A stretch of DNA of 43,691 nt from Candidatus Poseidoniaceae archaeon (GTDB taxonomy: Archaea > Thermoplasmatota > Poseidoniia > Poseidoniales > Poseidoniaceae): positions 1 through 43,691 of the forward strand of contig JAQXFL010000005.1 in assembly GCA_029250345.1 (NCBI GenBank), in the 5' to 3' direction. Shown one piece after another: positions 6,654 to 42,161 of this stretch (the stretch's first letter is position 1; each line of letters begins with the position of its first letter). A program made the position numbers and the translations under genes. The notes beneath the pieces are model-generated. The model saw nothing but the letters and a program-made list of their open reading frames with translations, searched no databases and had not been told where the DNA came from.

Positions 6654-7438
6654 TGGTCGAACTCGTACCAACATTGCTTCGCCAAGAACTCGCTCGTCTT
6701 GCAGAAGACGATCAACGACTCGACGGACGCAGCCAATGGGAAGGCCGAGAAGTCAGTCTCGAAGTGGACTGCCTCTACAACGCTGAAGGTTCAGCAAAGG
6801 TCGTCATGGGCAAAACCATCGTTTATGCCGGTGTTAAGTTCGAACTCCGAACACCTTGGCCTGACCGCCCTACACAGGGTTCACTCATGTGTGGTGCAGA
6901 ACTACGTCCTGTGGCTCACCGCAAGTATGAACCTGGGCCACCATCACCGCAATCCATTGAACTTGGCCGTGTAGTTGACCGTGGAATCCGTGAATCCGGA
7001 TGCATCGACATGGAGAGTCTCTGTATTGTTCCTGGAGAGAAGGTCTGGGGCGTCATGATTGACATCCACGTTCTTTCCGACGGCGGAAATATTTTCGACG
7101 CTTGCGGACTTGCCGCAATCGCTGCTTTGCGAACGGCAATTGTTCCTGCTGAACGATTTGATGTTGGCGAAGATTACAAGCTGAAAGTCAACGGAACACC
7201 CATCATGTCATCCTTTACTCGTGTCGGAGGCCGTTACATTTACGACCCATCTGAAGAGGAGGAACTCGGTGGCGATGAGCGAATTCATATCACTCTCGGA
7301 GACGAGGGTCACCTCCATTCCCTACAAAAGGGGTTAAGAGGGGTGTTCACGCCGGCCGAATTTGCAGAGATATTCGATGTGGCACATCAGCGATGCGCCG
7401 ATCTTCGAACACTCGTGGCAAACCAGGAGGGGAACTGA
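6653..7438 (+). CDS. rrp42: Exosome complex protein Rrp42 (inactive RNase PH-like)
   Basis: 'RLDGRSQWEGREV' RNase-PH-like protein immediately after rrp41, with a TGATG overlap. Confidence 0.9.
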   Translation: MVELVPTLLRQELARLAEDDQRLDGRSQWEGREVSLEVDCLYNAEGSAKVVMGKTIVYAGVKFELRTPWPDRPTQGSLMCGAELRPVAHRKYEPGPPSPQSIELGRVVDRGIRESGCIDMESLCIVPGEKVWGVMIDIHVLSDGGNIFDACGLAAIAALRTAIVPAERFDVGEDYKLKVNGTPIMSSFTRVGGRYIYDPSEEEELGGDERIHITLGDEGHLHSLQKGLRGVFTPAEFAEIFDVAHQRCADLRTLVANQEGN

Positions 7439-7798
7439 TTGGCAAAGCGAACACAAAAAGCAGGCGCAACAGCACGATTTGGAGCTCGATACGGTGTATC
7501 CGTTCGACGTAACGCAGGGTCAGCACTGGCGAAGAAAACCGCCAAGTATACCTGCCCAGTATGCCAATACCGTAAGGTGACCCGACAATCCGTAGGAATT
7601 TGGTCCTGTGGAAAGTGCGGACACACCTTCGCTGGTGGCGCATGGGAACCTTTCACACGTGCTTCAGATACAAACAGCCGAATTCTACGCCGTTCAGTCG
7701 AAGGTGCAACCACCGCAGACATGGCATTCATCGCTCAACAAGCAGCAATGGATTATGAGCGTGCACTCGCTGCTGGCGAAATCTCTGAAGAAGAGTGA
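7439..7798 (+). CDS. rpl37ae: 50S ribosomal protein L37Ae (eL43), C-terminally extended
   Basis: 'AKRTQKAGATARFGARYG' and zinc ribbon 'CPVCQ...CGKCGHTFAGGAW'. Apparent TTG start follows directly after the rrp42 stop. Confidence 0.85.
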   Translation: MAKRTQKAGATARFGARYGVSVRRNAGSALAKKTAKYTCPVCQYRKVTRQSVGIWSCGKCGHTFAGGAWEPFTRASDTNSRILRRSVEGATTADMAFIAQQAAMDYERALAAGEISEEE

Positions 7799-7820
7799 AC
7801 ACTCTCGTGGAGTGTTGACG

Positions 7821-8075
7821 ATGTCGTGGTCATTGACCCTGTCAGTTCAATCCAATTCACGTGAAGATACCAAGGCTCTTGCTGATGCACTCATCACAGA
7901 TGAAGATGTCATTTGGGCAACTTCGAAAGAGCATTTCTCATTCCAATTGAATGAAGAAAAAGCAAAGGATTTGCGTGCAATGCTTAACACCCGTATGCGT
8001 GGTCTCATCGCAGTGGATTCTCTGCTTGCATCTCTCGTGGACCAGTCCGAGGGTTCATCAACCCAAGGCCAGTGA
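7821..8075 (+). CDS. pcc1: KEOPS complex subunit Pcc1-like
   Basis: 84 aa. 'LTLSV..S..DTKALADAL' and 'AKDLRAMLNTRMRGL' resemble the Pcc1 pattern (A.D...LRA.lNs.lR). Position next to prefoldin beta is as in the archaeal superoperon. The ORF-track start 7608 overlaps rpl37ae. Confidence 0.55.
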   Translation: MSWSLTLSVQSNSREDTKALADALITDEDVIWATSKEHFSFQLNEEKAKDLRAMLNTRMRGLIAVDSLLASLVDQSEGSSTQGQ

Positions 8076-8092
8076 GAAGAACAGGTGAGCGT

Positions 8093-8413
8093 ATGGATAA
8101 CATGGAACAACTGCAAGTCGTCGTCAACGAAGTTCAGTCTGCACGTCAGCAACTCGCTAACTTACGAGCTCAAGTTTTGGAACTTGAGACCACGCTTGAA
8201 TCGGTCAAGACACAACCAGCAGACCTGGCACTTCACCAACAAATGGGTGGCGTGATGGTGGAAGTTTCCGATCGTGAAGCACTCGTCAAGGAACTCGATC
8301 AAACACTCACGGCTCTCAAAGAGCACCTCGAACGGTTCGCTGGACGAGAAGCTGAACTTCTTGCGACCTATGACCAGCTCAAACAAATGCTTTCGGGGTC
8401 GGAGAACGCATGA
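8093..8413 (+). CDS. pfdB: Prefoldin subunit beta
   Basis: About 106-aa coiled-coil/beta-hairpin/coiled-coil protein (central 'QQMGGVMVEVSDREA'). ATG 8093 is preceded by 'aggtga'. GTG 8072, overlapping the pcc1 stop, is an alternative start. Confidence 0.8.
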   Translation: MDNMEQLQVVVNEVQSARQQLANLRAQVLELETTLESVKTQPADLALHQQMGGVMVEVSDREALVKELDQTLTALKEHLERFAGREAELLATYDQLKQMLSGSENA

Positions 8414-16843: not shown

Positions 16844-17305
16844 ATGAACGGCTCGATTGTGGGCCTTTTTGCAGCACCTGAAGGTGGAGTTCCCAAGCCA
16901 CGTGTTGAACAACTCGAAGTTCGCGACGATGGCTGTACAGGCGATTATCAACGAGACAAGAAGCATCATGGCGGCCCTGACCGCGCTGTTTGCCTGTTCA
17001 GTTCCGAAGTCATTTCTCATTTACAAGAGAGCGGACATCCGATCTACCCGGGTTCCGTTGGTGAGAATATTCTCGTCAAGGGAGTCCAATGGGAAAATGT
17101 CGGTATTGGCTCGATTTTCCGCTTTGCCGACCTCACTTTGGAAGTTACATCTGATGCGCCACCGTGTAAGACGATTCGCGATTCATTTACCAACGGTAGA
17201 TTCAAGGAAATCTCAGTGAAAACAGCACCTCACATGACACGCTGGTACGCCAAAGTCATCAAGCAAGGCAACGTCAAAATCGGTGATGATTTTGAAATCA
17301 ACTGA
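16844..17305 (+). CDS. MOSC domain protein (YiiM-like)
   Basis: 'DKKHHGGPDRAVCLFS', 'PGSVGENILV' and 'PCKTI' are typical MOSC elements. ATG lies 5 nt after the EF-2 stop (or GTG 16835 overlapping it). Confidence 0.8.
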   Translation: MNGSIVGLFAAPEGGVPKPRVEQLEVRDDGCTGDYQRDKKHHGGPDRAVCLFSSEVISHLQESGHPIYPGSVGENILVKGVQWENVGIGSIFRFADLTLEVTSDAPPCKTIRDSFTNGRFKEISVKTAPHMTRWYAKVIKQGNVKIGDDFEIN

Positions 17306-19112
17306 TTCGCTTTAATTGGAAGTCTGTTAATTCACGCAAGGCCTTCATTGCAGGTCCTTGTGGAATGCGGTCCAAACAAGCGTGGGCCTTTGCGTGGTAA
17401 TCGACCGCACGTTGCTTTGCATAGTCGATCGAACCGAGGTTGCCCAATGCCTTGAGTGCATCAGCAATGGCTTGAGCATCTGCAGCCTCGCCTTTTCCGA
17501 GAGCCGCAAGCAAGGTTTGTTTGTCTTCACTGTCAGGTTGTGCAAGCGCATGAATCACCATCAATGTCCTCTTACCTTGAGCTACATCAGAACCTGCTGG
17601 TTTTCCGAGTACATCTGAGTCGGACAGCACATCAATCAAATCATCCATAAGTTGGAAGCAGAGTCCGACAGCAAGACCCCAATCTGCCATACAGTCAATT
17701 GTTTCTTGGTCTGCACCGGCCATTCTTGCGCCAATTTCTGCACAGGTGAGGAACATGACAGCAGTCTTTCCTTCAATCATCTCGATGTAGTCGTCTTCCG
17801 ATACTGCGAGTTCATCTTCAAATTCGATATCCATCTGCTGACCTTCGCTGACGCGACGGACCATCCAGGCAATTCTGTTTACGAGTGGGGCTACATCGTT
17901 TGCTTGAAGCCCTTCAGCTTGTACTAATCGCTCGAACGCAATTGCAAGCATTGCATCACCGGCATTGATGGCGGTAGGGAGGTCGAACTCAATGTGGACG
18001 GCATTTCTGCCTCGTCGAACATCATCGTCATCCATGATATCATCGTGAACCAATGTGAAGTTGTGGACTGTTTCAATCGCTGCACCCACATCGAGCATTC
18101 CAGAGTGAGAGTCGCCAACCGCTTTTCCGACGAGCCATGGTAATGTTGCACGCAGCCGCTTTCCACCTCCATGAATGAGGTGGGTCATTGCAGCAGCCAG
18201 TCTTTCATGACGTGAGGCCATCAAGCTGTTCATGATACGTTGCTCAACCAACGGCTTTACCTCGAGAACAGAGATGTTGAGGCCAGCCCCCTCGGCTTCG
18301 GGTAGCATGTGTGTTACATCGCCCATGTCGTGTATTTCATCGTCGCTTAATGCGCTCAAAGCATCCGAATCTCCAATGGCGCTCCACCAGTCATCGTTCA
18401 TGATTCGAGCAGCAATGCATCGGAACCACGGTGCGACCGATCCATTGGAACGTTCCTCTTCGATGAGCATATCTTCCAATTCCTCTTGGGATACCCACAT
18501 GGTTTCCGAGACTTCGTTTTCGTTGATGTTGAGTTCAACGTCTTTCTGAGCAACTAGAATATGGTCGATTTCTCTTTCAATCCATGTTTCATTCATTCGT
18601 GCTGAATAACGCATCTTGGTCATGAAGGTAAAGTCGTCCGCCGAAATATGGCTCGGGTCGATTCCAAGTTCCTGTTCTAGTTTACGAATTGCAGCGGTTT
18701 TTACACCGAGCGCCCCTTCTTCAACCAATTCTTCGTCGCTGTGAAGCGGGTGTGAGCAGCAGGAATTCGCCCAGACCCCTGGGAATGTGACTTTGCCGTG
18801 TGCTCGACGTTGGAGCAGCAATCTCTTCTTTGAATCAAACAGCAGAACACTGAATGCACGGTGGTACGCTCCTGCGTTCCGATGAGCCGCAATTTTGGAC
18901 AGAGGTCCGAGTACTGCGTCCTTTTCATTGACTGCAATAATGGCTTCGGACATGAGTGTCGACTGCGTAGAATCAGCACCCAACGAGTCGAGTAAATCCC
19001 TCTCAGAATCAGACAGTTCGATATTCGGGACGTCTGTTATATCGTATCCGCTCATGTGAACCCCGAGTTCAATGGATTCGCGGTCGCTACATGAAGAGTT
19101 CTGTAAAGTCAT
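17298..19112 (-). CDS. Bifunctional fusion: type-1 isopentenyl-diphosphate isomerase (N) + geranylgeranyl/polyprenyl diphosphate synthase (C)
   Basis: N-terminal half: 'HRAFSVLLFDSKKRLLLQRRAHGKVTFPGVWANSCCSHPL' and 'EREIDHILV' (IDI1 Cys/Glu motifs, eukaryote-like CCSHP). C-terminal half: FARM 'LVHDDIMDDDDVRRGR' and SARM 'FQLMDDLID'. Start is uncertain (TTG 19121, ATG 19112 or ATG 19055). Confidence 0.85.
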   Translation of the reverse strand: MTLQNSSCSDRESIELGVHMSGYDITDVPNIELSDSERDLLDSLGADSTQSTLMSEAIIAVNEKDAVLGPLSKIAAHRNAGAYHRAFSVLLFDSKKRLLLQRRAHGKVTFPGVWANSCCSHPLHSDEELVEEGALGVKTAAIRKLEQELGIDPSHISADDFTFMTKMRYSARMNETWIEREIDHILVAQKDVELNINENEVSETMWVSQEELEDMLIEEERSNGSVAPWFRCIAARIMNDDWWSAIGDSDALSALSDDEIHDMGDVTHMLPEAEGAGLNISVLEVKPLVEQRIMNSLMASRHERLAAAMTHLIHGGGKRLRATLPWLVGKAVGDSHSGMLDVGAAIETVHNFTLVHDDIMDDDDVRRGRNAVHIEFDLPTAINAGDAMLAIAFERLVQAEGLQANDVAPLVNRIAWMVRRVSEGQQMDIEFEDELAVSEDDYIEMIEGKTAVMFLTCAEIGARMAGADQETIDCMADWGLAVGLCFQLMDDLIDVLSDSDVLGKPAGSDVAQGKRTLMVIHALAQPDSEDKQTLLAALGKGEAADAQAIADALKALGNLGSIDYAKQRAVDYHAKAHACLDRIPQGPAMKALRELTDFQLKRIS

Positions 19113-19154
19113 TTGACACAACTGCGGATGAAAGTGAAAAAATTGAGGTGCAGT

Positions 19155-20083: not shown

Positions 20084-20419
20084 ATGTCCGACGGTCCGTC
20101 TCTAAGCGACTTCATGCGTCATCTTCAAGCAATCTTGGAAGATTCGGAAGAAATTCCTGATCGAGAAGATCGTGAAACCCGACAATTCCAGATTGAATCA
20201 GCAATTCAAGAAGCAATTTTGTTTGGTAACCGGTACAAGGAGTTGCTCGAACATGGAATCGATCCATTCCATTTCGTTCGTTCGATGTCCAACGATGAGC
20301 ATCCACAACCAGTTTCCAAGGCTGAATCGCTAAGTCTTGGTCATGACCATTGTTCCGGCTGTGGAACACGTCTTGAGAAAGATCTCGACTTCTGCGCCTC
20401 ATGCGGCGCAAAGCGATAA
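20084..20419 (+). CDS. Hypothetical acidic protein with a C-terminal zinc ribbon
   Basis: 111 aa, ending 'CSGCGTRLEKDLDFCASCGAK'. Confidence 0.45.
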   Translation: MSDGPSLSDFMRHLQAILEDSEEIPDREDRETRQFQIESAIQEAILFGNRYKELLEHGIDPFHFVRSMSNDEHPQPVSKAESLSLGHDHCSGCGTRLEKDLDFCASCGAKR

Positions 20420-21221: not shown

Positions 21222-22397
21222 ATGGTTGATGTCGCAGTCATCGGTGCAGGTCAAACCAAGTATGGTAACCACCATCTCGGTCTCAAAGGGATGTGGGCTG
21301 AAGCCGCTGAAAATGCTTTTGCGAGTGTTGACCAGAATTTCGACCCACGGCAAGTGGATGAAGCATTCATCGGCAGCGTGGCTTTCGGCGGTGGTCAACT
21401 AGGCAATACCGCTGCACTGCTTACCGAACATTCTGGGATGGAAGGCGTGGCAGTGCGTCGTGTTGAGAACGCATGTGCATCTTCTGGTTTCGCATTACGG
21501 GATGCTTGGATGGCCATTAAGAGTGGACAAGCAGACATTGTGGTTGCTGGTGGCATCGAAAAAATGAATGATCTTTCACCGGAACGCAAGCGGTTTTGGC
21601 TCGGCGTTTCGGGTGATACTGAATGGGAGCGGCTGGCTGGTCTTACCTTTCCAGGAACGTATGCGCTCATGGCTCGACGGCATTTTCACGAACATCAATC
21701 CACTCACGACGATTTAGTGCACATCAGCGTCAAAAACCACATGCATGGTTTCGAAAATCAACAGGCGCACCTTCGAAAGCAGGTCTCTTTTGAGAAAGCT
21801 GCGGGTGGTTTCATGGTCGCAGATCCCCTGACGCTCTACGACTGTTGCCCAACTTCAGATGGCGCATCATGCGTGATTTTGGCGGCAGATCATGTTGTGC
21901 GTCAATTTACCGATGACCCCGTCTGGATTCGATCATCCGGTGCAGGTTCAGACAGGCTTGCTTTGCACGACCGTCCATCCATCACCCAATTGGTAGCAAC
22001 TCAGAAGGCTTCCAAATCGGCTTATTCAGCTGCAGGGATAACTGCTCGCGATGTTGATTTAGCCGAAGTCCACGATTGTTTCACAATTGCTGAAATGATT
22101 GCAACTGAAGACCTAGGCTTTGCCGATTCTGGACAGGGCGGACTCTTTGCCCGCAACGGTGAAGGAATTCGCAATCAAGGTTCAGTCTGTCTCAATCCGA
22201 GTGGTGGTCTCAAGTCGAAGGGCCATCCTCTAGGTGCCACAGGAACCGGTCAGGCAGTTGAAGTGTTCAAGCAACTGCGTGGATCAGTCGAGTCTGAGCG
22301 ACAAGTCCGTGATGCCGAAATAGGTATCACCCACAACGTCGGAGGTTCTGGTGCCACATGTGCAGTCCATGTGTTTGGGAGGGATCGAAATGAGTGA
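21222..22397 (+). CDS. Archaeal-type thiolase (acetyl-CoA C-acetyltransferase, SCP-x-like)
   Basis: 'VAVIGAGQTKYG', catalytic Cys in 'ENACASSG', 'VHDCFT', 'NPSGGLKSKGHPLGATG'. The ORF-track start 21036 overlaps divergent kptA, so ATG 21222 is preferred. Confidence 0.85.
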   Translation: MVDVAVIGAGQTKYGNHHLGLKGMWAEAAENAFASVDQNFDPRQVDEAFIGSVAFGGGQLGNTAALLTEHSGMEGVAVRRVENACASSGFALRDAWMAIKSGQADIVVAGGIEKMNDLSPERKRFWLGVSGDTEWERLAGLTFPGTYALMARRHFHEHQSTHDDLVHISVKNHMHGFENQQAHLRKQVSFEKAAGGFMVADPLTLYDCCPTSDGASCVILAADHVVRQFTDDPVWIRSSGAGSDRLALHDRPSITQLVATQKASKSAYSAAGITARDVDLAEVHDCFTIAEMIATEDLGFADSGQGGLFARNGEGIRNQGSVCLNPSGGLKSKGHPLGATGTGQAVEVFKQLRGSVESERQVRDAEIGITHNVGGSGATCAVHVFGRDRNE

Positions 22398-23241
22398 GAC
22401 AACTGAATGGAAGGGATACTTACTCTCGCATTCGAACGGTTCATTGCTCCTTCAGTCCCCTTACATTCATGACGGTACTCCTGTGTTCGGGCCAGACAGT
22501 GATTCAACAACAATGGCAGTGGCTGGAATCCAATATTTACATGCCCAAGGGCACAAATTCACGACCATCCGTCTACCACAATCCATTGACGCCCAAGTGG
22601 TATACATGTCAACATCGGTTGACTCGCCTCAGCGAAATCAAGATCTTGATGATGACGTTGTCGACTGGCATTTAATCGACGGTGAAGAGGCGACATTGGT
22701 TCTTTCTCAATCCGATGATGAACATTATGAGTTCGATGAACCAATCGGTACTGAAATCATGGATGACGAATTATTCACGGATATGAAGGCCGCTTGGGAG
22801 CAAGAGTGTTCCCTGCAGCATGTTTCCCAAGGTGCGTATGTCTCTCAGTCGCAATACTATGAGGGTGGAGCTGCTCGACTTTCACTCGCATCACAGAACT
22901 TTGATGGTAGCATCATTTGGCCACCACGTCAAATGGATTCGTCAGGCGTACGTCTTCCTAAGGAAGACGCCCTTCTCGCTGATGCTGCAACCGTCGAATC
23001 GTGGACGAAACTGAGTGCTGCTGGCGCACCTTCAGAATTCTCCCTACGTGCACCAATATTGGGTGGGGTTCAAACGGTTCTCGTCAAGTTCGAAGAAGGC
23101 CCTCGAGGTGTCTTTTTGGTTTGCGATGACGTCGAATATTCTCCCCGTATTGGCGACCAAGTTCATTTTGCGGTTCGTCGCATTTACGCTCAAGAAGGCT
23201 TGATTCGTTACGGTCTCAAAGCCATTCCACAGTCTGCCTAA
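22390..23241 (+). CDS. DUF35-type OB-fold protein, atypical (Cys-less ribbon region, N-terminal extension of about 145 aa)
   Basis: The C-terminal ~130 aa follow the DUF35 pattern ('IIWPPRQ', 'GGVQTVLVKFEEGPRGVFLV', 'IGDQVHFAVRRI'). ATG 22390 overlaps the thiolase stop (ATGAGTGA) and follows 'gggaggga'. Confidence 0.6.
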   Translation: MSETTEWKGYLLSHSNGSLLLQSPYIHDGTPVFGPDSDSTTMAVAGIQYLHAQGHKFTTIRLPQSIDAQVVYMSTSVDSPQRNQDLDDDVVDWHLIDGEEATLVLSQSDDEHYEFDEPIGTEIMDDELFTDMKAAWEQECSLQHVSQGAYVSQSQYYEGGAARLSLASQNFDGSIIWPPRQMDSSGVRLPKEDALLADAATVESWTKLSAAGAPSEFSLRAPILGGVQTVLVKFEEGPRGVFLVCDDVEYSPRIGDQVHFAVRRIYAQEGLIRYGLKAIPQSA

Positions 23242-23302
23242 TGCAGAGTTTCCAACTTCTCTCTCCAAAGCCTTGATAGAAAGCCATTGTTGTGGGCATC
23301 TC

Positions 23303-24319
23303 ATGGCAGGCTTTGGTAACATACGGAAAGGACGACGCGAGGCCGTAGACAATCTTGCTTTCACTGAAGGTGGAGACTGCCCCAGGTGCGGTGGAGAATC
23401 TCAACCTTCGACGATGAATGGATATCTGAGCTGCGTTGCTTGCCAGCATGAGTGGAAAGACCCGAACCATGTTGATTCCTCGGGCCCTACTGAAATTCCA
23501 ACCTACCACCAGGACCGTGCCAAAATCGAAGAATTCCGTAAGGAGGTTGAAAGCGGTGGACTCGCTGGAGTTCTCGGTGTTGACAGTAATTTATCTGATG
23601 AGCAAGAAGCGTCGCTTTCTCGACTTGAAGACAAGTGGATGTCCGGCATGAAGGGGCATTACAACACAGCGACTGAGGAACGGAAACCACTCATGATTAG
23701 TTTCGATGACGACGATAACATCGTATCGACTGAAGTTGCAGCACTTACAATCGTAGCAAACGGCTTTGACGGTGGAGAAGAAATACGACTGGAATATCCT
23801 GGTAAGGGCACTGAGTTCTATTGTTTCAACGTTTCAGATCCTCACGGTTGGAGGCGTGGTACCTCAGCAGCACACACCGCTCGGTCAATTGCAAATGTAA
23901 TCAACAACAATTCTAATTTGGTCTATGCTAATCTCGAGGGTACAAGAATTTCATTCGAACTACGGAGCGAGGATTTGAAACCAGAATCACTCGTTCTGTT
24001 CGTTGATGACCCTGGAGGAACGGATATCGTTGCTGAGAAAAACGGAGTTGTATTGGATGCTCGAAACCTGCAAGATTTCGAGGATTACCGTAGTATTGTA
24101 GCGCTGGTTTTGGAAGATGGAATCATCTCGCCAAGCGAAGATCAACTGCTCTGGTCCATGCGTCAGCAACTTGGAATTGATGATGTATACCATATCCAAA
24201 TGGTATTGGAAATGTTTGGTGAGGATACGCTCAAGGAATGCACATCATGTGGCTCGATGGCTCGTCTCTATCCAGAATATGCTGCATGGTATTGTCAGTC
24301 CTGTGAAGAATGGTGCTGA
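23303..24319 (+). CDS. Uncharacterised protein with N- and C-terminal zinc ribbons
   Basis: 338 aa. 'CPRCGG-x15-CVAC' at the N-terminus and 'CTSCG-x14-CQSC' at the C-terminus. The central ~230 aa match no family I recognise. Confidence 0.6.
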   Translation: MAGFGNIRKGRREAVDNLAFTEGGDCPRCGGESQPSTMNGYLSCVACQHEWKDPNHVDSSGPTEIPTYHQDRAKIEEFRKEVESGGLAGVLGVDSNLSDEQEASLSRLEDKWMSGMKGHYNTATEERKPLMISFDDDDNIVSTEVAALTIVANGFDGGEEIRLEYPGKGTEFYCFNVSDPHGWRRGTSAAHTARSIANVINNNSNLVYANLEGTRISFELRSEDLKPESLVLFVDDPGGTDIVAEKNGVVLDARNLQDFEDYRSIVALVLEDGIISPSEDQLLWSMRQQLGIDDVYHIQMVLEMFGEDTLKECTSCGSMARLYPEYAAWYCQSCEEWC

Positions 24320-24429
24320 TTTCTTCGATAGTTCAGTTCAAGAATGGCATTTTTCCAACCTCAAGTGCGATTCTGTATGCGTGGCATCCTTCATAAGGTA
24401 GTTCACAATGGCAAGGGTAGGCGAGTGTT

Positions 24430-25455
24430 ATGGCAGAAGACGTATTGTATATTGGAATTGATTTGGGAACCTTCCGTTCGGTTATGGTTTCATCCGACAG
24501 CCACGAAGTAGAAGAGTTGACCGTTATCGGAACTCCGAAAGACCCGATTGCCCGTAATTTCCTCAAGCGAGATGTTCTCTTTGGTGAAGAAGCACTCAAA
24601 AATCGACTTGCACTCAACCTTTTCCGACCACTCGAACTTGGTGTTATCAAAGACACGCAAGAAGACCGTGAATTCATTGCACACTTTATCACCCACCTGA
24701 TTGGACTTTCCGACCCCGAAGACTACGATCGTGTCGTCGCTGTCATTGGTGCTCCTGCTGAAGCAAGTTATGTCGATAAGACTGCAATTTTCGACGCAGC
24801 TGCAGGTTCCGTAAACGCCGCTATGATTATTTCTGAACCATTCGCTGTTGCGTATGCACTGGACATGATTGAACACACTCTCGTCATTGATATTGGAGCA
24901 GGAACCGCAGATCTTTGCCGTGTTTACGGTACAATCCCTGGCCCTGGCGATCAAATGCACACCGGGCACGCTGGAGACTTTGTTGACCGAAAAATCATCG
25001 AAGAAGTGCAATCTAAGTACAGCGGTGCACAAATTACCAAGGATATGGCTCGCCGATGGAAGGAGCAATATTCCTTCGTAGGAACAGCATCCCCTGACGA
25101 ACCGGTTATGGTTGACTTCTCTATTGAAGGAAAAGCAATGAATCTCGATATTACCGACTGTATTCAGCGAGCATGTGAGTCTATTGTCGACCCTATCGTT
25201 GAAAACGTCAAGGAATTGATTTCTGGCTCGAACCCTGAGTATCACGACCAGTTCCGTCGAAACATGGTTCTCGCTGGTGGCGGCTCAGGAATCAAAGGCC
25301 TCGGGGCCATGATTGAGCGTAAACTCTCTGATATGGGCGATGTCAATGTACACGTCGTTGATGACCCGGTACGCTTGGGCGCAATGGGCGGTCTGCGACT
25401 TGCAATGGAAGTTCCTGAAGAAATGTGGAAGAACCTTACTCTCGCATCTCGCTGA
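24430..25455 (+). CDS. Actin-fold ATPase, MamK-family-like (MreB/MamK superfamily)
   Basis: Phosphate-1 'IGIDLGT', phosphate-2 'VIDIGAGTADLC', adenosine motif 'VLAGGGSGIKGL'. MamK-like stretches are 'GTIPGPGDQ', 'WKEQYSFVGT', 'NPEY' and 'DDPVRLGAMGGLRLA'. Confidence 0.8.
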   Translation: MAEDVLYIGIDLGTFRSVMVSSDSHEVEELTVIGTPKDPIARNFLKRDVLFGEEALKNRLALNLFRPLELGVIKDTQEDREFIAHFITHLIGLSDPEDYDRVVAVIGAPAEASYVDKTAIFDAAAGSVNAAMIISEPFAVAYALDMIEHTLVIDIGAGTADLCRVYGTIPGPGDQMHTGHAGDFVDRKIIEEVQSKYSGAQITKDMARRWKEQYSFVGTASPDEPVMVDFSIEGKAMNLDITDCIQRACESIVDPIVENVKELISGSNPEYHDQFRRNMVLAGGGSGIKGLGAMIERKLSDMGDVNVHVVDDPVRLGAMGGLRLAMEVPEEMWKNLTLASR

Positions 25456-25472
25456 GATTAAGACTTCAAGTG

Positions 25473-25490
25473 CATTCGCTCGCACGAATG
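25473..25490 (+). terminator. Hairpin plus T-rich tail after the actin-like gene
   Basis: Inverted repeat cattcg / cgaatg (6 bp, 6-nt loop) starts 18 nt after the stop and is followed by 'ttgtt'. This is weak as an archaeal terminator. Confidence 0.3.
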
Positions 25491-25589
25491 TTGTTCACCT
25501 GTCTCATCGTATAGTTTTCATTAACTCAATGATTGAATTTCACTCGCAACCTACAACATCTCTTTCAATAAGACTGCCAACATAACCGC

Positions 25590-26390
25590 ATGGACGATTC
25601 CGATTCTGCAGGTGAATCAATCAGCAATCCCCCTGAAAAGATTGTCTTAGTTGATGGACCAGCGCTTTCTGGTGTCGAATCTTATTCAAGTTCTACACAG
25701 GGTGCAAACCCATATTCGGAGGACAACGCAGGTGTATCAAGCCGTCCACAGTGGGTTTGGTTTGTCGCAGGTCTTTTCATTCTGCCAATTTTTGTAGCGA
25801 TTGCAAGTACATCATTTGCTACCTTAGCTGATTCTGGACTGTTTACTTCGTACTCTTCTGAAGAATCTACTTCGGAGAATAATGTTTCTTTTGGTACCGA
25901 AGCCTACGCAGTTCGTGGATTTTATATGTCCTCAGAATTTAACTCTAATTTTGCAACTCATGGTTACTGGGATCTTACAGTGGAAACTGAAACCTGGGAA
26001 GGATACATTTCGGGTTATGGGTCGCAAAAAGTACGTGACATTGAGCAGCCCGTTGAGGCTGATGATACAGGTAAAAATTGGTGGGTGGCAGAGTTCCATG
26101 ATGCGAATCAGAATTTTTCTGTTTATATTTCGCAAGAGGGTAATTCGGTGTTCATAGCCTATCCTCCTTCAACCTCTGAACCAACATACACTCACTACTA
26201 CTGGAAAGACTCAGGTGGAATCCTTGATTTTGGGTCTCTTGCTGTTTTGGTCTGGCCAGTTTCTGCCATTGGTGGGATTGCCTGGGGCTTTGCTAAAAAG
26301 CGTCCATCTTTTTCGTACGGTGTAATGATTTGGGGCTCAATTGTTCTTCTTGCCACCGTTTTCATTGCGTTCATTGCCCTGGCACTTTAG
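25590..26390 (+). CDS. Membrane protein: acidic/Ser-rich N-terminal tail, TM, ~130-aa Tyr/Trp-rich loop domain, two C-terminal TMs (hypothetical)
   Basis: 266-aa ORF. TM1 'WVWFVAGLFILPIFVAIAS'. C-terminal TMs 'LAVLVWPVSAIGGIAWGF' and 'VMIWGSIVLLATVFIAFIALAL'. Confidence 0.55.
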   Translation: MDDSDSAGESISNPPEKIVLVDGPALSGVESYSSSTQGANPYSEDNAGVSSRPQWVWFVAGLFILPIFVAIASTSFATLADSGLFTSYSSEESTSENNVSFGTEAYAVRGFYMSSEFNSNFATHGYWDLTVETETWEGYISGYGSQKVRDIEQPVEADDTGKNWWVAEFHDANQNFSVYISQEGNSVFIAYPPSTSEPTYTHYYWKDSGGILDFGSLAVLVWPVSAIGGIAWGFAKKRPSFSYGVMIWGSIVLLATVFIAFIALAL

Positions 26391-26445
26391 TTTGAGTAGA
26401 GCGGATTCAAATTGAAAGCGCAGTTGCCCATGTAGCATATTTGTC

Positions 26446-27306
26446 TTATTGCTGGCTCATCCAAACCGTCCATGCATTGGCGACTTCATCCTTCTCCTTG
26501 TTCGAGTTGACACCCGCCATACTTCCAAAGAATTTCGTCATGAGAACTGGAGTAACAGTTTCACCTATTTTGACATGGCCCATTTTCAATTCAGTTCCTT
26601 GCTTATCTCCGGGGTTAGCATCAGTAAATGTACCGTGCCCAAACAGTCTTTCGATGATCACCCAGCCCGACTTTCCTGTGACCTGTATCCACTTAGGCTT
26701 AATTTTCTTAATAATTGCTTCAATTAATCGCATGTTTGCACCAAGAGCAGGGTCCGTCTGTATGAGGTCTGCAAGGTGTTCAGGGTTGAGGCCAGTTTTA
26801 TGTGAGAAGTATTGAACTGTGTCCACTTCGACGAGGTGCCTGTGGCAAACCATTTGCTTCCAATCAGCAGTAGAAAAGTCTGAAGCAGTTTCAGTAAACC
26901 AGTGTTTACCTAGCCAGCTGCCGTATTTGTTAAAGTATCGACGATTCCTTTCTTCCCGCAGGAAATACTGGTTTTGGAACTGAATCCAATTCTCTAGATC
27001 ACTCACTTTTCCTGAATTTCTGTAGTTTTGTAGGCTTTCCATTGGTAGATTGATGTTCACTCTCTGGAAATTTTCATCAAAATTTCGCTTCGGGTTGATG
27101 CCCAAGAGAAGAACACACTCACCAGGTGGGACATTATCGATGTCACCCACGTATGTATGCGGAGGTACATTTGGGTCGAGCATTGTGTCGCCTTTGAGGT
27201 TGAGTGCTCGGTTCAAACGAGCTACTGCAGCTTCGTGGTCTTGTTCGATAACAGCTAGCCATTCGTCCATGACCATCTTAATCACCATCTCAGTATGTTT
27301 TGGCAA
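26446..27306 (-). CDS. Hypothetical protein with uracil-DNA-glycosylase-like motif order
   Basis: 286-aa ORF in a visibly more AT-rich stretch. 'CVLLLGINPK' recalls MUG/TDG motif 1. Start is uncertain: ATG 27306 overlaps the proS end, and ATG 27288 lies directly after the proS stop. Confidence 0.5.
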   Translation of the reverse strand: MPKHTEMVIKMVMDEWLAVIEQDHEAAVARLNRALNLKGDTMLDPNVPPHTYVGDIDNVPPGECVLLLGINPKRNFDENFQRVNINLPMESLQNYRNSGKVSDLENWIQFQNQYFLREERNRRYFNKYGSWLGKHWFTETASDFSTADWKQMVCHRHLVEVDTVQYFSHKTGLNPEHLADLIQTDPALGANMRLIEAIIKKIKPKWIQVTGKSGWVIIERLFGHGTFTDANPGDKQGTELKMGHVKIGETVTPVLMTKFFGSMAGVNSNKEKDEVANAWTVWMSQQ

Positions 27307-39947: not shown

Positions 39948-42161
39948 TCAGTCATCATCTGCGGTTTCGTCCTTCTTGTCAGAATAGGTAACCACCCTTC
40001 GAGTTTTTACTTTCCTTTGTGTTGGTTTTTCTTTAACCACCTTTTTCTTTGAAGCAGTCTTCCTCCGAGGTAGTTCTTCAGATGTTGCTGCATTACTGTC
40101 TAGGCGTCGACGCTTGACCTTCGTAATCGGGCCATCCTTTGGTGCTACTTTTTGAACGGCCTTTCTGCGGGTCTTAACGGGTTTGTCTTCAGACTTTTCG
40201 CGAGGTTCATCAGTGGTTACGTCTCGCTCCTCACTGTAACCTTCATCATTGTTCTGGAGATCATCAACTTCTTCGTCGTATTCCGGTTCATCATCGCTGA
40301 TTGTACCGAGCTCTCCTTCATCTTCAACGTCCATATCGAGTTCTAAATCCATTGCGTTCTTGGTTCTCATCAGCACCACAGCGACTCCTGCCAGCAAGAG
40401 TATGACTGGGGCAAACAGGATTGGATTGTCGATGAACCCTTCAATCACTTTTGTCGCAATGCCTGGCTCTTCTTTGACCACTTCCTCCAACGTGATGCTC
40501 AGTTCACCCTCACTCACCCACCAAGGAGAATAATAGAATTCATTCGATTCCGAAGATAATGCAGTAACATCGATGGGGTGGAGTTCAGCATGTTGGGCCA
40601 AAGAGGCATCAGTTGACTTCGGTTGAGATCGAATGTTAAATTCAAGCGGGTATGTTACCGTATCACTGAGATTAAAGTAAATCGAGTAGGTGACAGCAAT
40701 GTGCGTTTTTTGGTCACTCACTGCAGTAAATGCCATTCCTCGTTCGACATTGCATTCGACACGAGCATTTGTAAGCTGACCCGATGACATTTGTATGGCG
40801 TCTTTCCAAGAACTGATGTAGTGAATTTGGTTCATATTTTTGCACGTTGCATCGGCAAAAAGTACAGCCTCTTCTTCACTCAACTGCGTATCCGTCACAA
40901 CAGAACGCCGAGAAAGATTTCGCAATGCTGAGGAGAGTTGAATGTCGAGGGTGAATGTATCGTCAAGGATTAATCCAGTAGAATTAAACTGGAGTGAAAC
41001 TTTCCGGATGGTCTCTACATCCGGGTTTTTGCTGCATGCTTGGGTAAAAGTTTCACAATTGTTGTCTCGGATATCGGGAATTGCATCACCGTCATCATCA
41101 TCATCAAACTCATCTGGAAGTTCATCTCCATCCAAATCAGCGCCGCTTTCACCCTGTCCTACTGCTACACTCGGAGCGCCATAGACTGCAATATGTCCCG
41201 TATCCGTCGCTACATAGGCCATTTGGCGTGTGCCAAATTGGTTCTCGACGATATCGAAACCCATGGCTTGATGAGCGAGATAAATCGATACGATGTCGTT
41301 GAGTGATGTGGAATCCACTGTGAGAATTCTCTGTGAAATTCCAGTTTCGAGGAGGTGGATTTGGTTGTTGTTGACCGACCATAGCAACTGCGAGCCCCCC
41401 TCAAAATTTCTTTCAGATATTGCTCCACCGGAAAATGACCAGAGTGCCATTTGACCTTGTTCGGTAAATACAGCAAGTTGTTCGTCCACTGAATCAAAGT
41501 CACAACTCACCACTTTTGAATCGTGGTCCCATTGCTTGCCGGTTGGATTCCCCTCAAGCGTCCACATGACGACACGACCACTTTCATCGCCGGTCAAAAT
41601 GTAACTTCCGAGGGATGAAAAATCCACACATGTCACCTTCGTATTGTGCTCTCCGTTGAGCGTTCGTTCGACTTGCATGTCCGATGCACGAAGTAGATTG
41701 ATTCCATTGTTGGTGTTTGGGACTGCGATTAGGTTTCCATCCGGCGACCATTCTATACGTTCTGAGCGCGAATTGGAACCACTCTGTTTCGAGGTCAGCG
41801 TCATTGATTCAACATCAATGACTTGTATCGTATCGGTATCGGTTACAGAGCCGGTCATGGCAAATGCGATCAATGTTCCATCAGGAGAGAACTTGATATC
41901 CAATACATCACCGTCTACGTCAAAGGATTCGACCAATTCTAAGCTGCTCAAATTGTGAATTGCTACTAATCCATCATATCCACTTGCAATCAAGGTTTCA
42001 TCTGGGCTTATATGGACCGTACGAGATTCCTCTGCATTCTCTGTCACAGTTACATCGACAAAAGCAATATCTGAGTATTGGCCTGCGACCACTGAAACTG
42101 AACTTGCTAGAAACACCGCTAAGCAAAGTAGCGTTTGTATTCTTAACCGTCGATTGTCCAT
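39948..42161 (-). CDS. Type-I membrane surface protein: signal peptide, WD40-like beta-propeller, Asp-rich Ca-binding-like linker, unknown domain, TM, charged cytoplasmic tail
   Basis: 737 aa. Signal-like 'LLCLAVFLASSVSVVAG'. Repeated 'SPDG.LIA' blades (ISPDETLIASG, FSPDGTLIAFA, WSPDGNLIAVP, LTGDESGRVVMW). 'DLDGDELPDEFDDDDDGDAIPD'. TM 'ILFAPVILLLAGVAVVLM'. The 139-aa tail is acidic in its first half and Lys/Arg-rich in its second. Confidence 0.7.
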   Translation of the reverse strand: MDNRRLRIQTLLCLAVFLASSVSVVAGQYSDIAFVDVTVTENAEESRTVHISPDETLIASGYDGLVAIHNLSSLELVESFDVDGDVLDIKFSPDGTLIAFAMTGSVTDTDTIQVIDVESMTLTSKQSGSNSRSERIEWSPDGNLIAVPNTNNGINLLRASDMQVERTLNGEHNTKVTCVDFSSLGSYILTGDESGRVVMWTLEGNPTGKQWDHDSKVVSCDFDSVDEQLAVFTEQGQMALWSFSGGAISERNFEGGSQLLWSVNNNQIHLLETGISQRILTVDSTSLNDIVSIYLAHQAMGFDIVENQFGTRQMAYVATDTGHIAVYGAPSVAVGQGESGADLDGDELPDEFDDDDDGDAIPDIRDNNCETFTQACSKNPDVETIRKVSLQFNSTGLILDDTFTLDIQLSSALRNLSRRSVVTDTQLSEEEAVLFADATCKNMNQIHYISSWKDAIQMSSGQLTNARVECNVERGMAFTAVSDQKTHIAVTYSIYFNLSDTVTYPLEFNIRSQPKSTDASLAQHAELHPIDVTALSSESNEFYYSPWWVSEGELSITLEEVVKEEPGIATKVIEGFIDNPILFAPVILLLAGVAVVLMRTKNAMDLELDMDVEDEGELGTISDDEPEYDEEVDDLQNNDEGYSEERDVTTDEPREKSEDKPVKTRRKAVQKVAPKDGPITKVKRRRLDSNAATSEELPRRKTASKKKVVKEKPTQRKVKTRRVVTYSDKKDETADDD

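Follow-up and report, generated by a model that had tools for sequence, protein, structure and literature searches.

The closest described counterparts of the protein considered here are the partners of prokaryotic actin filaments. ParR and AlfB, the adaptors of ParM and AlfA, are non-enzymatic proteins of small to medium size that are encoded beside a bacterial-type actin gene and couple the filament to its cargo through a short peptide or helix. The MamK partners MamJ and MamY are lineage-specific and non-enzymatic, and the arcadins, the partners of crenactin in the Thermoproteales, are archaeal, lineage-specific and encoded around the actin gene. Short peptides or helices serve to bind the respective actin in ParR, in arcadin-2, which contacts crenactin by a short C-terminal helix, and in WH2 motifs. 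Salactin, an archaeal actin related to MamK, has been tied to DNA partitioning (PMC10746226). Here, we describe a gene that lies directly upstream of a MamK-like actin gene in a stretch of 43,691 nucleotides (the window) from a Candidatus Poseidoniaceae archaeon (contig JAQXFL010000005.1). Its product of 338 residues, encoded at 23303-24319 (+), carries two zinc ribbons and is referred to as ZR338. The Poseidoniales (Marine Group II), which are uncultured, count among the most abundant archaea of the surface ocean; to our knowledge, nothing is known of their cell biology. We tentatively regard ZR338 as an order-specific, zinc-stabilised scaffold and as a candidate adaptor or regulator of the adjacent filament.

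As such, ZR338 would act like ParR and AlfB, MamJ and MamY or the arcadins, yet it belongs to none of these families. Like ParR and AlfB, it is proposed to couple a filament to cargo through a short segment, and its N-terminus possibly binds nucleic acid. ParR, however, is a ribbon-helix-helix protein with which ZR338 has neither sequence nor fold similarity; no ribbon-helix-helix or ParR family was returned by the Pfam and NCBIfam scans, and the predicted N-terminus is a zinc ribbon. Further, ParR is encoded downstream of parM, in one operon and beside centromere repeats, whereas ZR338 lies upstream of the actin gene, behind a putative promoter of its own, in the chromosomal core genome. A search of 22300-26500 for ParR-like centromere repeats or iterons gave only short two-copy chance repeats. 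MamJ is acidic and repetitive and MamY is a membrane protein, neither of them with zinc ribbons, whereas ZR338 has no acidic repeats and no homology to either. Both are tied to magnetosomes, and no magnetosome genes were noticed in the window or in the Poseidoniales loci examined. The arcadins, too, are without zinc ribbons and without homology to ZR338, and crenactin is eukaryote-like in contrast to the MamK-like actin found here. The short actin-binding helix of arcadin-2 is nevertheless comparable to the conserved segments of ZR338 that are predicted to be disordered.

The argument for a link with actin starts from gene order. Across 80 GTDB loci and six further contigs, which cover Marine Group IIa (MGIIa) and the Thalassarchaeaceae (MGIIb), the actin gene was found next to ZR338 on the same strand in all 83 loci with enough flanking sequence. 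In the window, the ZR338 stop at 24319 and the actin ATG at 24430 leave the 110 nt that the preliminary description of this DNA had given for two genes on one strand. The conservation of this linkage among relatives, which that description had proposed to check, holds in both Poseidoniales families and even in a doubly rearranged clade. The gene upstream of ZR338 occurs in three states, encoding a DUF35-like protein in most MGIIa, thiolase in MGIIb and Tpt1 in a clade of five species (L048, L051, L052, L055 and L065). In the latter, an inversion affects the Tpt1-thiolase-DUF35 block, and the IDI/IPK/zr111 genes are relocated to the downstream side of actin; the ZR338-actin pair is intact. The junction after actin takes at least six states among 67 loci, the junction between ZR338 and actin a single one. 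With three states upstream and at least six downstream, the pair is therefore the unit that has been kept. The site after actin itself looks like a rearrangement hot spot.

The neighbour had been described as MamK-like, and this assignment is well founded. The 341-residue actin aligns from end to end with the MamK structure 5ljw (E 3.7e-76, 39% identity over 333 positions), it matches the MamK structures 5jyg and 5ljv with E about 1e-76, and it is 39% identical to the MamK of Magnetospirillum. Against the NCBIfam MamK model (NF040964) it scores 360 bits, just under the cut-off of 400, while BeeR reaches 212 bits; matches to MreB, salactin and volactin are far weaker than those to MamK (Pfam MreB_Mbl 8e-26, Salactin 2e-16). 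On these sequence comparisons, MamK is by far the best match despite the NCBIfam score below the cut-off. The DLGT, DIGAGT.D and AGGGS motifs are kept, and with them the phosphate- and adenosine-binding motifs. Identity of 79-100% across the Poseidoniales indicates unusually strong constraint. Public databases label the protein 'rod shape-determining protein MreB', and no paper discussing the gene was found in the searchable literature. A change of frame near codon 155 divides the actin gene of CM001443.1, the first MG-II genome to be assembled (7163-8187 of locus L027), and is probably a frameshift error from sequencing or assembly; there, ZR338 is undamaged and the spacer to actin has a normal length of 145 nt.

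The ZR338 gene is real, under strong constraint, order-specific and transcribed in the sea. The open reading frame called mechanically at the locus, 23273-24319 (+), begins with TTG and would encode 348 residues. The ATG at 23303, which gives 338 residues, is the real start: the orthologues all begin with MAGFG, and a conserved TATA-like box lies ~30 nt upstream. Relatives of ZR338 form 292 clusters at 90% identity and are present in 245 GTDB species; those with a source name are attributed to Poseidoniales, Poseidoniaceae or generic Euryarchaeota/Thermoplasmatota. When 1.84 billion representatives at 50% identity were searched exhaustively with phmmer, one full-length ZR338 cluster was returned; the remaining matches were fragments of the family or weak ones (E about 1e-4) confined to the last ~90 residues. 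No copy was found on the viral contigs of IMG/VR. The family is therefore an order-specific orphan. One comparative study has reported 199 protein families specific to the Poseidoniales (PMC9258230); no paper that mentions ZR338 was found in the searchable literature. Orthologues are 53-96% identical, those of MGIIb 53-55%. Further, ZR338 was found only in the lineage that has this variant of actin, the actin matches listed in the search for relatives all being at least 78% identical.

Both ends of ZR338 carry a zinc ribbon, as the preliminary description had it. Among 25 aligned MGIIa sequences, seven of the eight ribbon cysteines are invariant and the eighth, C44, is kept by 24; none of the eight varies when four sequences are aligned, MGIIb orthologues of only 53-55% identity among them. 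Judged from these alignments, their conservation is far beyond chance. The N-terminal ribbon of the window protein scores 25.8 bits against Pfam Zn_ribbon_IS1595 (cut-off 25.4), a family matched by 23 of the 25 members; the TFIIB ribbon (11/25) and L37ae (8/25) are matched more weakly. A profile of the ZR338 family matched eL43 chains in the PDB (E 0.007), and the basic tail together with the CPxCG…CxxC ribbon aligns with the C4 ribbons of eL43, IS1595 and TFIIB. The ribbon of the eL43 encoded in the same genome, 33% identical over 42 residues, is the closest relative of the N-terminal ribbon within the genome. Some ZR338 orthologues carry the JGI label 'ribosomal protein L37AE/L43A' because the N-terminal ribbon is eL43-like. 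eL43 (L37Ae) is a short protein (~70-120 residues) that consists of the ribbon only and is encoded in the exosome/ribosomal superoperon. That ZR338 is the ribosomal protein was ruled out: with 338 residues it is four times longer, it has unrelated extra domains, and a genuine eL43 gene is present elsewhere in the window.

AlphaFold2 models built with a 25-row alignment gave a mean predicted local distance difference test score (pLDDT) of 67 for the full protein and of 81 for residues 120-338; the resulting layout is given in Table 1. The segment of residues 101-141 is one of the best-conserved stretches of ZR338 (majority frequency 0.85-0.91) and has a pLDDT of 33-50, which makes it a candidate partner-binding linear motif. 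It is followed by a confidently modelled domain of ~115 residues. Foldseek searches of the PDB and BFVD with this domain retrieved the T7-like nozzle (gp12, tail tubular protein B), PhiTE tail proteins, flagellin FliC and FliD, in alignments of ~110 residues with a root-mean-square deviation of 3.4-5.9 Å and a probability of up to 1.0; identities were 8-20%, E-values modest (1e-2 to 1e-6) and whole-chain TM-scores low. The matched domains, such as the outer domain of FliC, sit outside helical or tubular polymers. The central domain thus resembles, in its predicted fold, the decoration or insertion domains of phage tail and flagellar proteins, homology being unproven. A viral origin of the domain was rejected, with no relative on IMG/VR contigs and no PHROG match.

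The preliminary description had called the fold unknown and the central ~230 residues without match. This remains true of sequence families, none having been found for the region in Pfam, NCBIfam, PHROGs or PDB sequences, and no longer of the predicted fold of residues ~142-255. A confident match of this region to an enzyme family, named there as a result that would speak against an adaptor, was not seen; the structural matches were to non-enzymatic decoration domains. An enzyme function for ZR338 as a whole was rejected, as Pfam, NCBIfam, PDB sequence and profile searches and Foldseek against PDB and BFVD returned no match to an enzyme. On inspection without a dedicated predictor, the sequence showed no evident signal peptide or membrane segment. 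Taken as models, these results suggest that ZR338 is a modular, soluble, non-enzymatic protein.

A TerB/DjlA-like helical segment had also been noted near the C-terminus. The segment, DGIISPSEDQLLWSMRQQLGIDD, is present, and its likeness to TerB is weakly supported by matches that stay below threshold. It belongs to a helical unit of residues 258-305 (predicted helices 259-269, 277-290 and 294-305) that contains the most conserved block of ten residues in ZR338, EDGIISPSED (majority frequency 0.99). This would be one ~48-residue 'DG[IV]I[ST]' unit of the type found in the TerB/DjlA-N superfamily (PF05099, DUF533), whereas a full TerB domain is a bigger bundle of helices. Among the 25 members, 16 match ENT and nine match TerB, all below the Pfam cut-offs, the best TerB match having E 0.0075 and falling under the cut-off of 24.4 bits. 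Relatives with two helical units match Pfam ENT, TerB and DUF533, and one of them, P0186, reaches 24.4 bits for TerB, equal to the cut-off. 

The helical unit ('DG[IV]I[ST]…E…L..LR..L.IS..EH') and the 'Y..WYCxxC' ribbon occur as mobile modules in other proteins (P0185, P0190, P0191, P0186, P0193, P0187, P0192 and P0189). The unit stands in tandem after double Lrp/AsnC helix-turn-helix domains (P0185, P0190 and P0191), and it is followed by the same type of ribbon in P0187 and P0192, the combination standing after a membrane or helical N-terminus. In P0189, the LYPEYxAWYCxxC ribbon is repeated five times in tandem with Pro/Ala-rich linkers between the copies. The C-terminal modules of P0187 and P0192, aligned and searched against a database, gave no matches.

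Table 1. Features of ZR338 and its surroundings, with positions in the window and residues of the 338-residue protein
Feature	Position	Strand	Remarks
eL43 (L37Ae) gene	7439-7795		genuine; after Rrp4/Rrp41/Rrp42, the classical archaeal exosome superoperon arrangement
TATA-like box of ZR338	23273-23282	+	TTGATAGA (23273..23280), TTGATAGAAA (23273-23282); ~30 nt before ATG
ZR338 coding sequence	23303..24319	+	338-residue double zinc-ribbon protein; Poseidoniales-specific family
Residues 1-22			conserved basic tail; low-confidence prediction
Residues 23-55			C4 ribbon
N-terminal C4 zinc ribbon (C26, C29, C44, C47)	23378..23443	+	C26-P-R-C29 ... C44-x2-C47; preceded by the conserved basic tail
Residues 56-70			variable linker
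Residues 71-114			two low-confidence helices
Residues 101-141	23603..23725	+	…LEDKWMSGMxGHxNxAxEERKPLMISFDDDDN…; conserved, predicted unstructured
Central alpha/beta domain, residues ~142-255	23726..24067	+	invariant motifs NGFDGGEEIRLEYPG and FVDDPGG; pLDDT 75-96
Three-helix repeat unit of ~48 residues, one copy	24074..24217	+	DYRxhhxhhLEDGIISPSEDQLLWxMRQQLGIDDxxH…; TerB-like, sub-threshold
Residues 306-338			second ribbon
C-terminal C4 zinc ribbon (C313, C316, C331, C334)	24239..24304	+	C313-x2-C316 ... C331-x2-C334; motif LYPEYxAWYCxxCExW; invariant cysteines
ZR338-actin spacer	24320..24429	+	110 nt; 70-160 nt in relatives
TATA-like box of actin	24389-24399	+	cTTCATAAGgt; inside the spacer; conserved across MGIIa loci
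MamK-like actin homologue	24430..25455	+	341 residues; 110 nt downstream of the ZR338 stop

The adaptor or regulator reading, which we rate as the most likely one although at less than even odds, is put forward because ZR338 is constantly adjacent to a very strongly constrained actin, is restricted to the lineage of this actin and has conserved disordered segments of the kind expected of an adaptor. Under this proposal, ZR338 would dock on actin through its conserved unstructured segments (residues 1-22 and 101-141). Decoration of the filament, and its connection to a cargo or a regulatory input, would fall to the globular parts, namely the alpha/beta domain, the TerB-like unit and the two ribbons. 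Nucleic acid is one possible cargo, which the basic, eL43-like N-terminal ribbon could bind. Actin would be made from a stronger promoter of its own, a filament subunit being needed in excess over its adaptor. The physical contact between ZR338 and actin, the contacting segment and the cargo or signal are what we infer here.

Both genes are transcribed in marine metatranscriptomes, where contigs of actin have ~2-5 times the depth of those of ZR338; this higher level is consistent with a filament subunit that outnumbers its adaptor. Every MGIIa locus, those of the rearranged clade included, has the box in front of ZR338 at an unchanged distance and in the form TT(G/C)ATAGAAA, and the fixed spacing to the ATG suggests a leaderless or near-leaderless transcript. 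The box in front of actin lies 30 or 41 nt before the ATG, the spacing shifting with indels as expected of a promoter rather than a ribosome-binding site. A special regulatory motif shared by the two genes, TT(C/G)ATA(A/G)(A/G), was considered and rejected: comparable A/T boxes precede other genes of the window, and the boxes of ZR338 and actin are therefore read as ordinary archaeal TATA boxes. No structured RNA was found in or near the spacer.

Several of these observations weigh against a functional link with actin. Each of the two genes has a conserved TATA-like box of its own, the gap between them is 70-160 nt and never an overlap in the 73 loci that gave complete sequences of both genes, and in six metatranscriptome runs actin RNA contigs start at 24419-24447. 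An RNA contig of run X11 extends from inside the DUF35-like gene through ZR338 and ends at the ZR338 stop codon. The sole bridging contig, from run X5 (24224-24822; 4x depth, ~93% identity), reaches from the last part of ZR338 across the spacer into the beginning of actin, and could represent read-through in a related strain or DNA carry-over. It should be noted that these data are assembler contigs and not reads, which makes them a poor measure of transcript ends, so that the ends of the ZR338 and actin transcripts are only suggested. On the whole, ZR338 and actin appear to be mainly separate transcription units. A further concern is that IDI-GGPPS, IPK, zr111, Tpt1 and thiolase, which are functionally unrelated to actin, are equally syntenic throughout the order, and inherited order could therefore explain the adjacency of ZR338 and actin as well. 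Since the junctions IDI-GGPPS|IPK, IPK|zr111 and Tpt1|thiolase are as stable, and since the site after actin is the apparent hot spot, synteny supports the link without proving it. The adaptor or regulator idea of the preliminary description has therefore gained in part: the linkage is kept and no enzyme family is matched, while the adaptor role is still inference and the two genes are loosely coupled.

A serious rival is that ZR338 has a function unrelated to actin, for example as a nucleic-acid-binding or regulatory ribbon protein, and that it stays beside actin only by inherited order in a core block that rearranges slowly. We consider this quite possible. The separate promoters and the RNA contigs, which mostly do not span the gap, are as this explanation would have it, and the whole upstream block of eight genes is syntenic in MGIIa and MGIIb despite mixed functions. 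The protein itself offers support too, in that the basic tail and N-terminal ribbon resemble the RNA- or DNA-binding ribbons of eL43, IS1595 and TFIIB, in that the helical unit recurs in transcription regulators of the Lrp/AsnC type, and in that P0187 and P0192, which share the C-terminal modules, have no actin gene on their contigs, these being only 1.5-2.4 kb long and the context uninformative. However, the pair has survived rearrangement on both of its sides, with a hot spot after actin and an inner junction that was never broken, and the distribution of ZR338 coincides with the lineage carrying this actin.

Alternatively, ZR338 might serve the mevalonate and lipid genes upstream, e.g. as the scaffold of a complex of thiolase, HMG-CoA synthase and a DUF35-type protein. 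In MGIIb it directly follows thiolase (gap 16-41 nt), the DUF35-like gene being missing there; the X11 contig joins that gene to ZR338; and DUF35 proteins contain a zinc ribbon as well. Against this, the thiolase/DUF35-like block is inverted away from ZR338 in the five-species clade, ZR338 has a conserved promoter box of its own, and the protein has neither an OB fold nor a DUF35 match, its fold matches being decoration domains. A service to the mevalonate genes is, on balance, very unlikely. The 283-residue DUF35-like protein of the window (22390-23241) follows thiolase, whose stop codon it overlaps, and its sole match is a weak C-terminal one to OB_ChsH2_C (DUF35-type OB fold). It evolves fast (38-90% identity in MGIIa) and is absent at this position in MGIIb (L083-L086).

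That ZR338 is a domesticated, degenerate IS1595-family transposase (ribbon plus decayed DDE domain) is hardly credible, since the ribbon that reaches the Zn_ribbon_IS1595 cut-off and an overall length similar to that of IS1595 transposases are set against the lack of a DDE_Tnp_IS1595 match even at E <= 1, of any RNase-H-like or transposase fold from Foldseek and of terminal repeats seen near a gene that is single-copy and fixed in its chromosomal position.

The window as a whole is a stretch of core genome with exosome genes, eL43, S7, EF-2, mevalonate-pathway genes, ProRS, transaldolase and transketolase. Downstream of actin, at 25590-27306, are two open reading frames for a putative membrane protein of 266 residues and a minus-strand protein of 286 residues, both without a Pfam or NCBIfam match and present only in the closest relatives. 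The zr111 gene (20084-20419) encodes a 111-residue protein with a C-terminal motif of the double-zinc-ribbon type (CSGCG…CASCG) and is syntenic between IPK and Tpt1 in all loci. Next to the gene for isopentenyl phosphate kinase (IPK), 17298-19121 encodes a 607-residue protein that appears to be a fusion of a NUDIX-type IDI-like domain with a polyprenyl synthase; Pfam NUDIX and polyprenyl_synt are recorded for its orthologue in L083 and L085. A 737-residue protein at 39948-42161 (-) has an N-terminal WD40 beta-propeller, matching many Pfam propeller families below their specific cut-offs.

The adaptor or regulator reading has a bolder extension, which we consider unlikely: ZR338 would be the founder of a new, non-homologous class of actin adaptors that couples a chromosomally encoded MamK-like filament to nucleic acid, be it the chromosome or RNA, or to other cargo. 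In such a class, the eL43-like ribbon may bind the cargo, the disordered segment may bind actin and the TerB-like unit may be the sensor of a metal or ligand. One of the most abundant archaeal groups in the ocean would then have evolved a system of positioning or segregation based on actin.

Being order-specific and never parted from the actin gene, ZR338 is the most obvious handle on the role of the filament, and since ZR338 and actin are soluble proteins of ordinary size, the matter lends itself to direct tests, either in vitro or with a heterologous host. If ZR338 is indeed linked to actin, it would represent a new, unrelated solution to the coupling of a prokaryotic actin with its cargo. 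If it is not, ZR338 would still be a well-defined, lineage-defining orphan with a new combination of domains.

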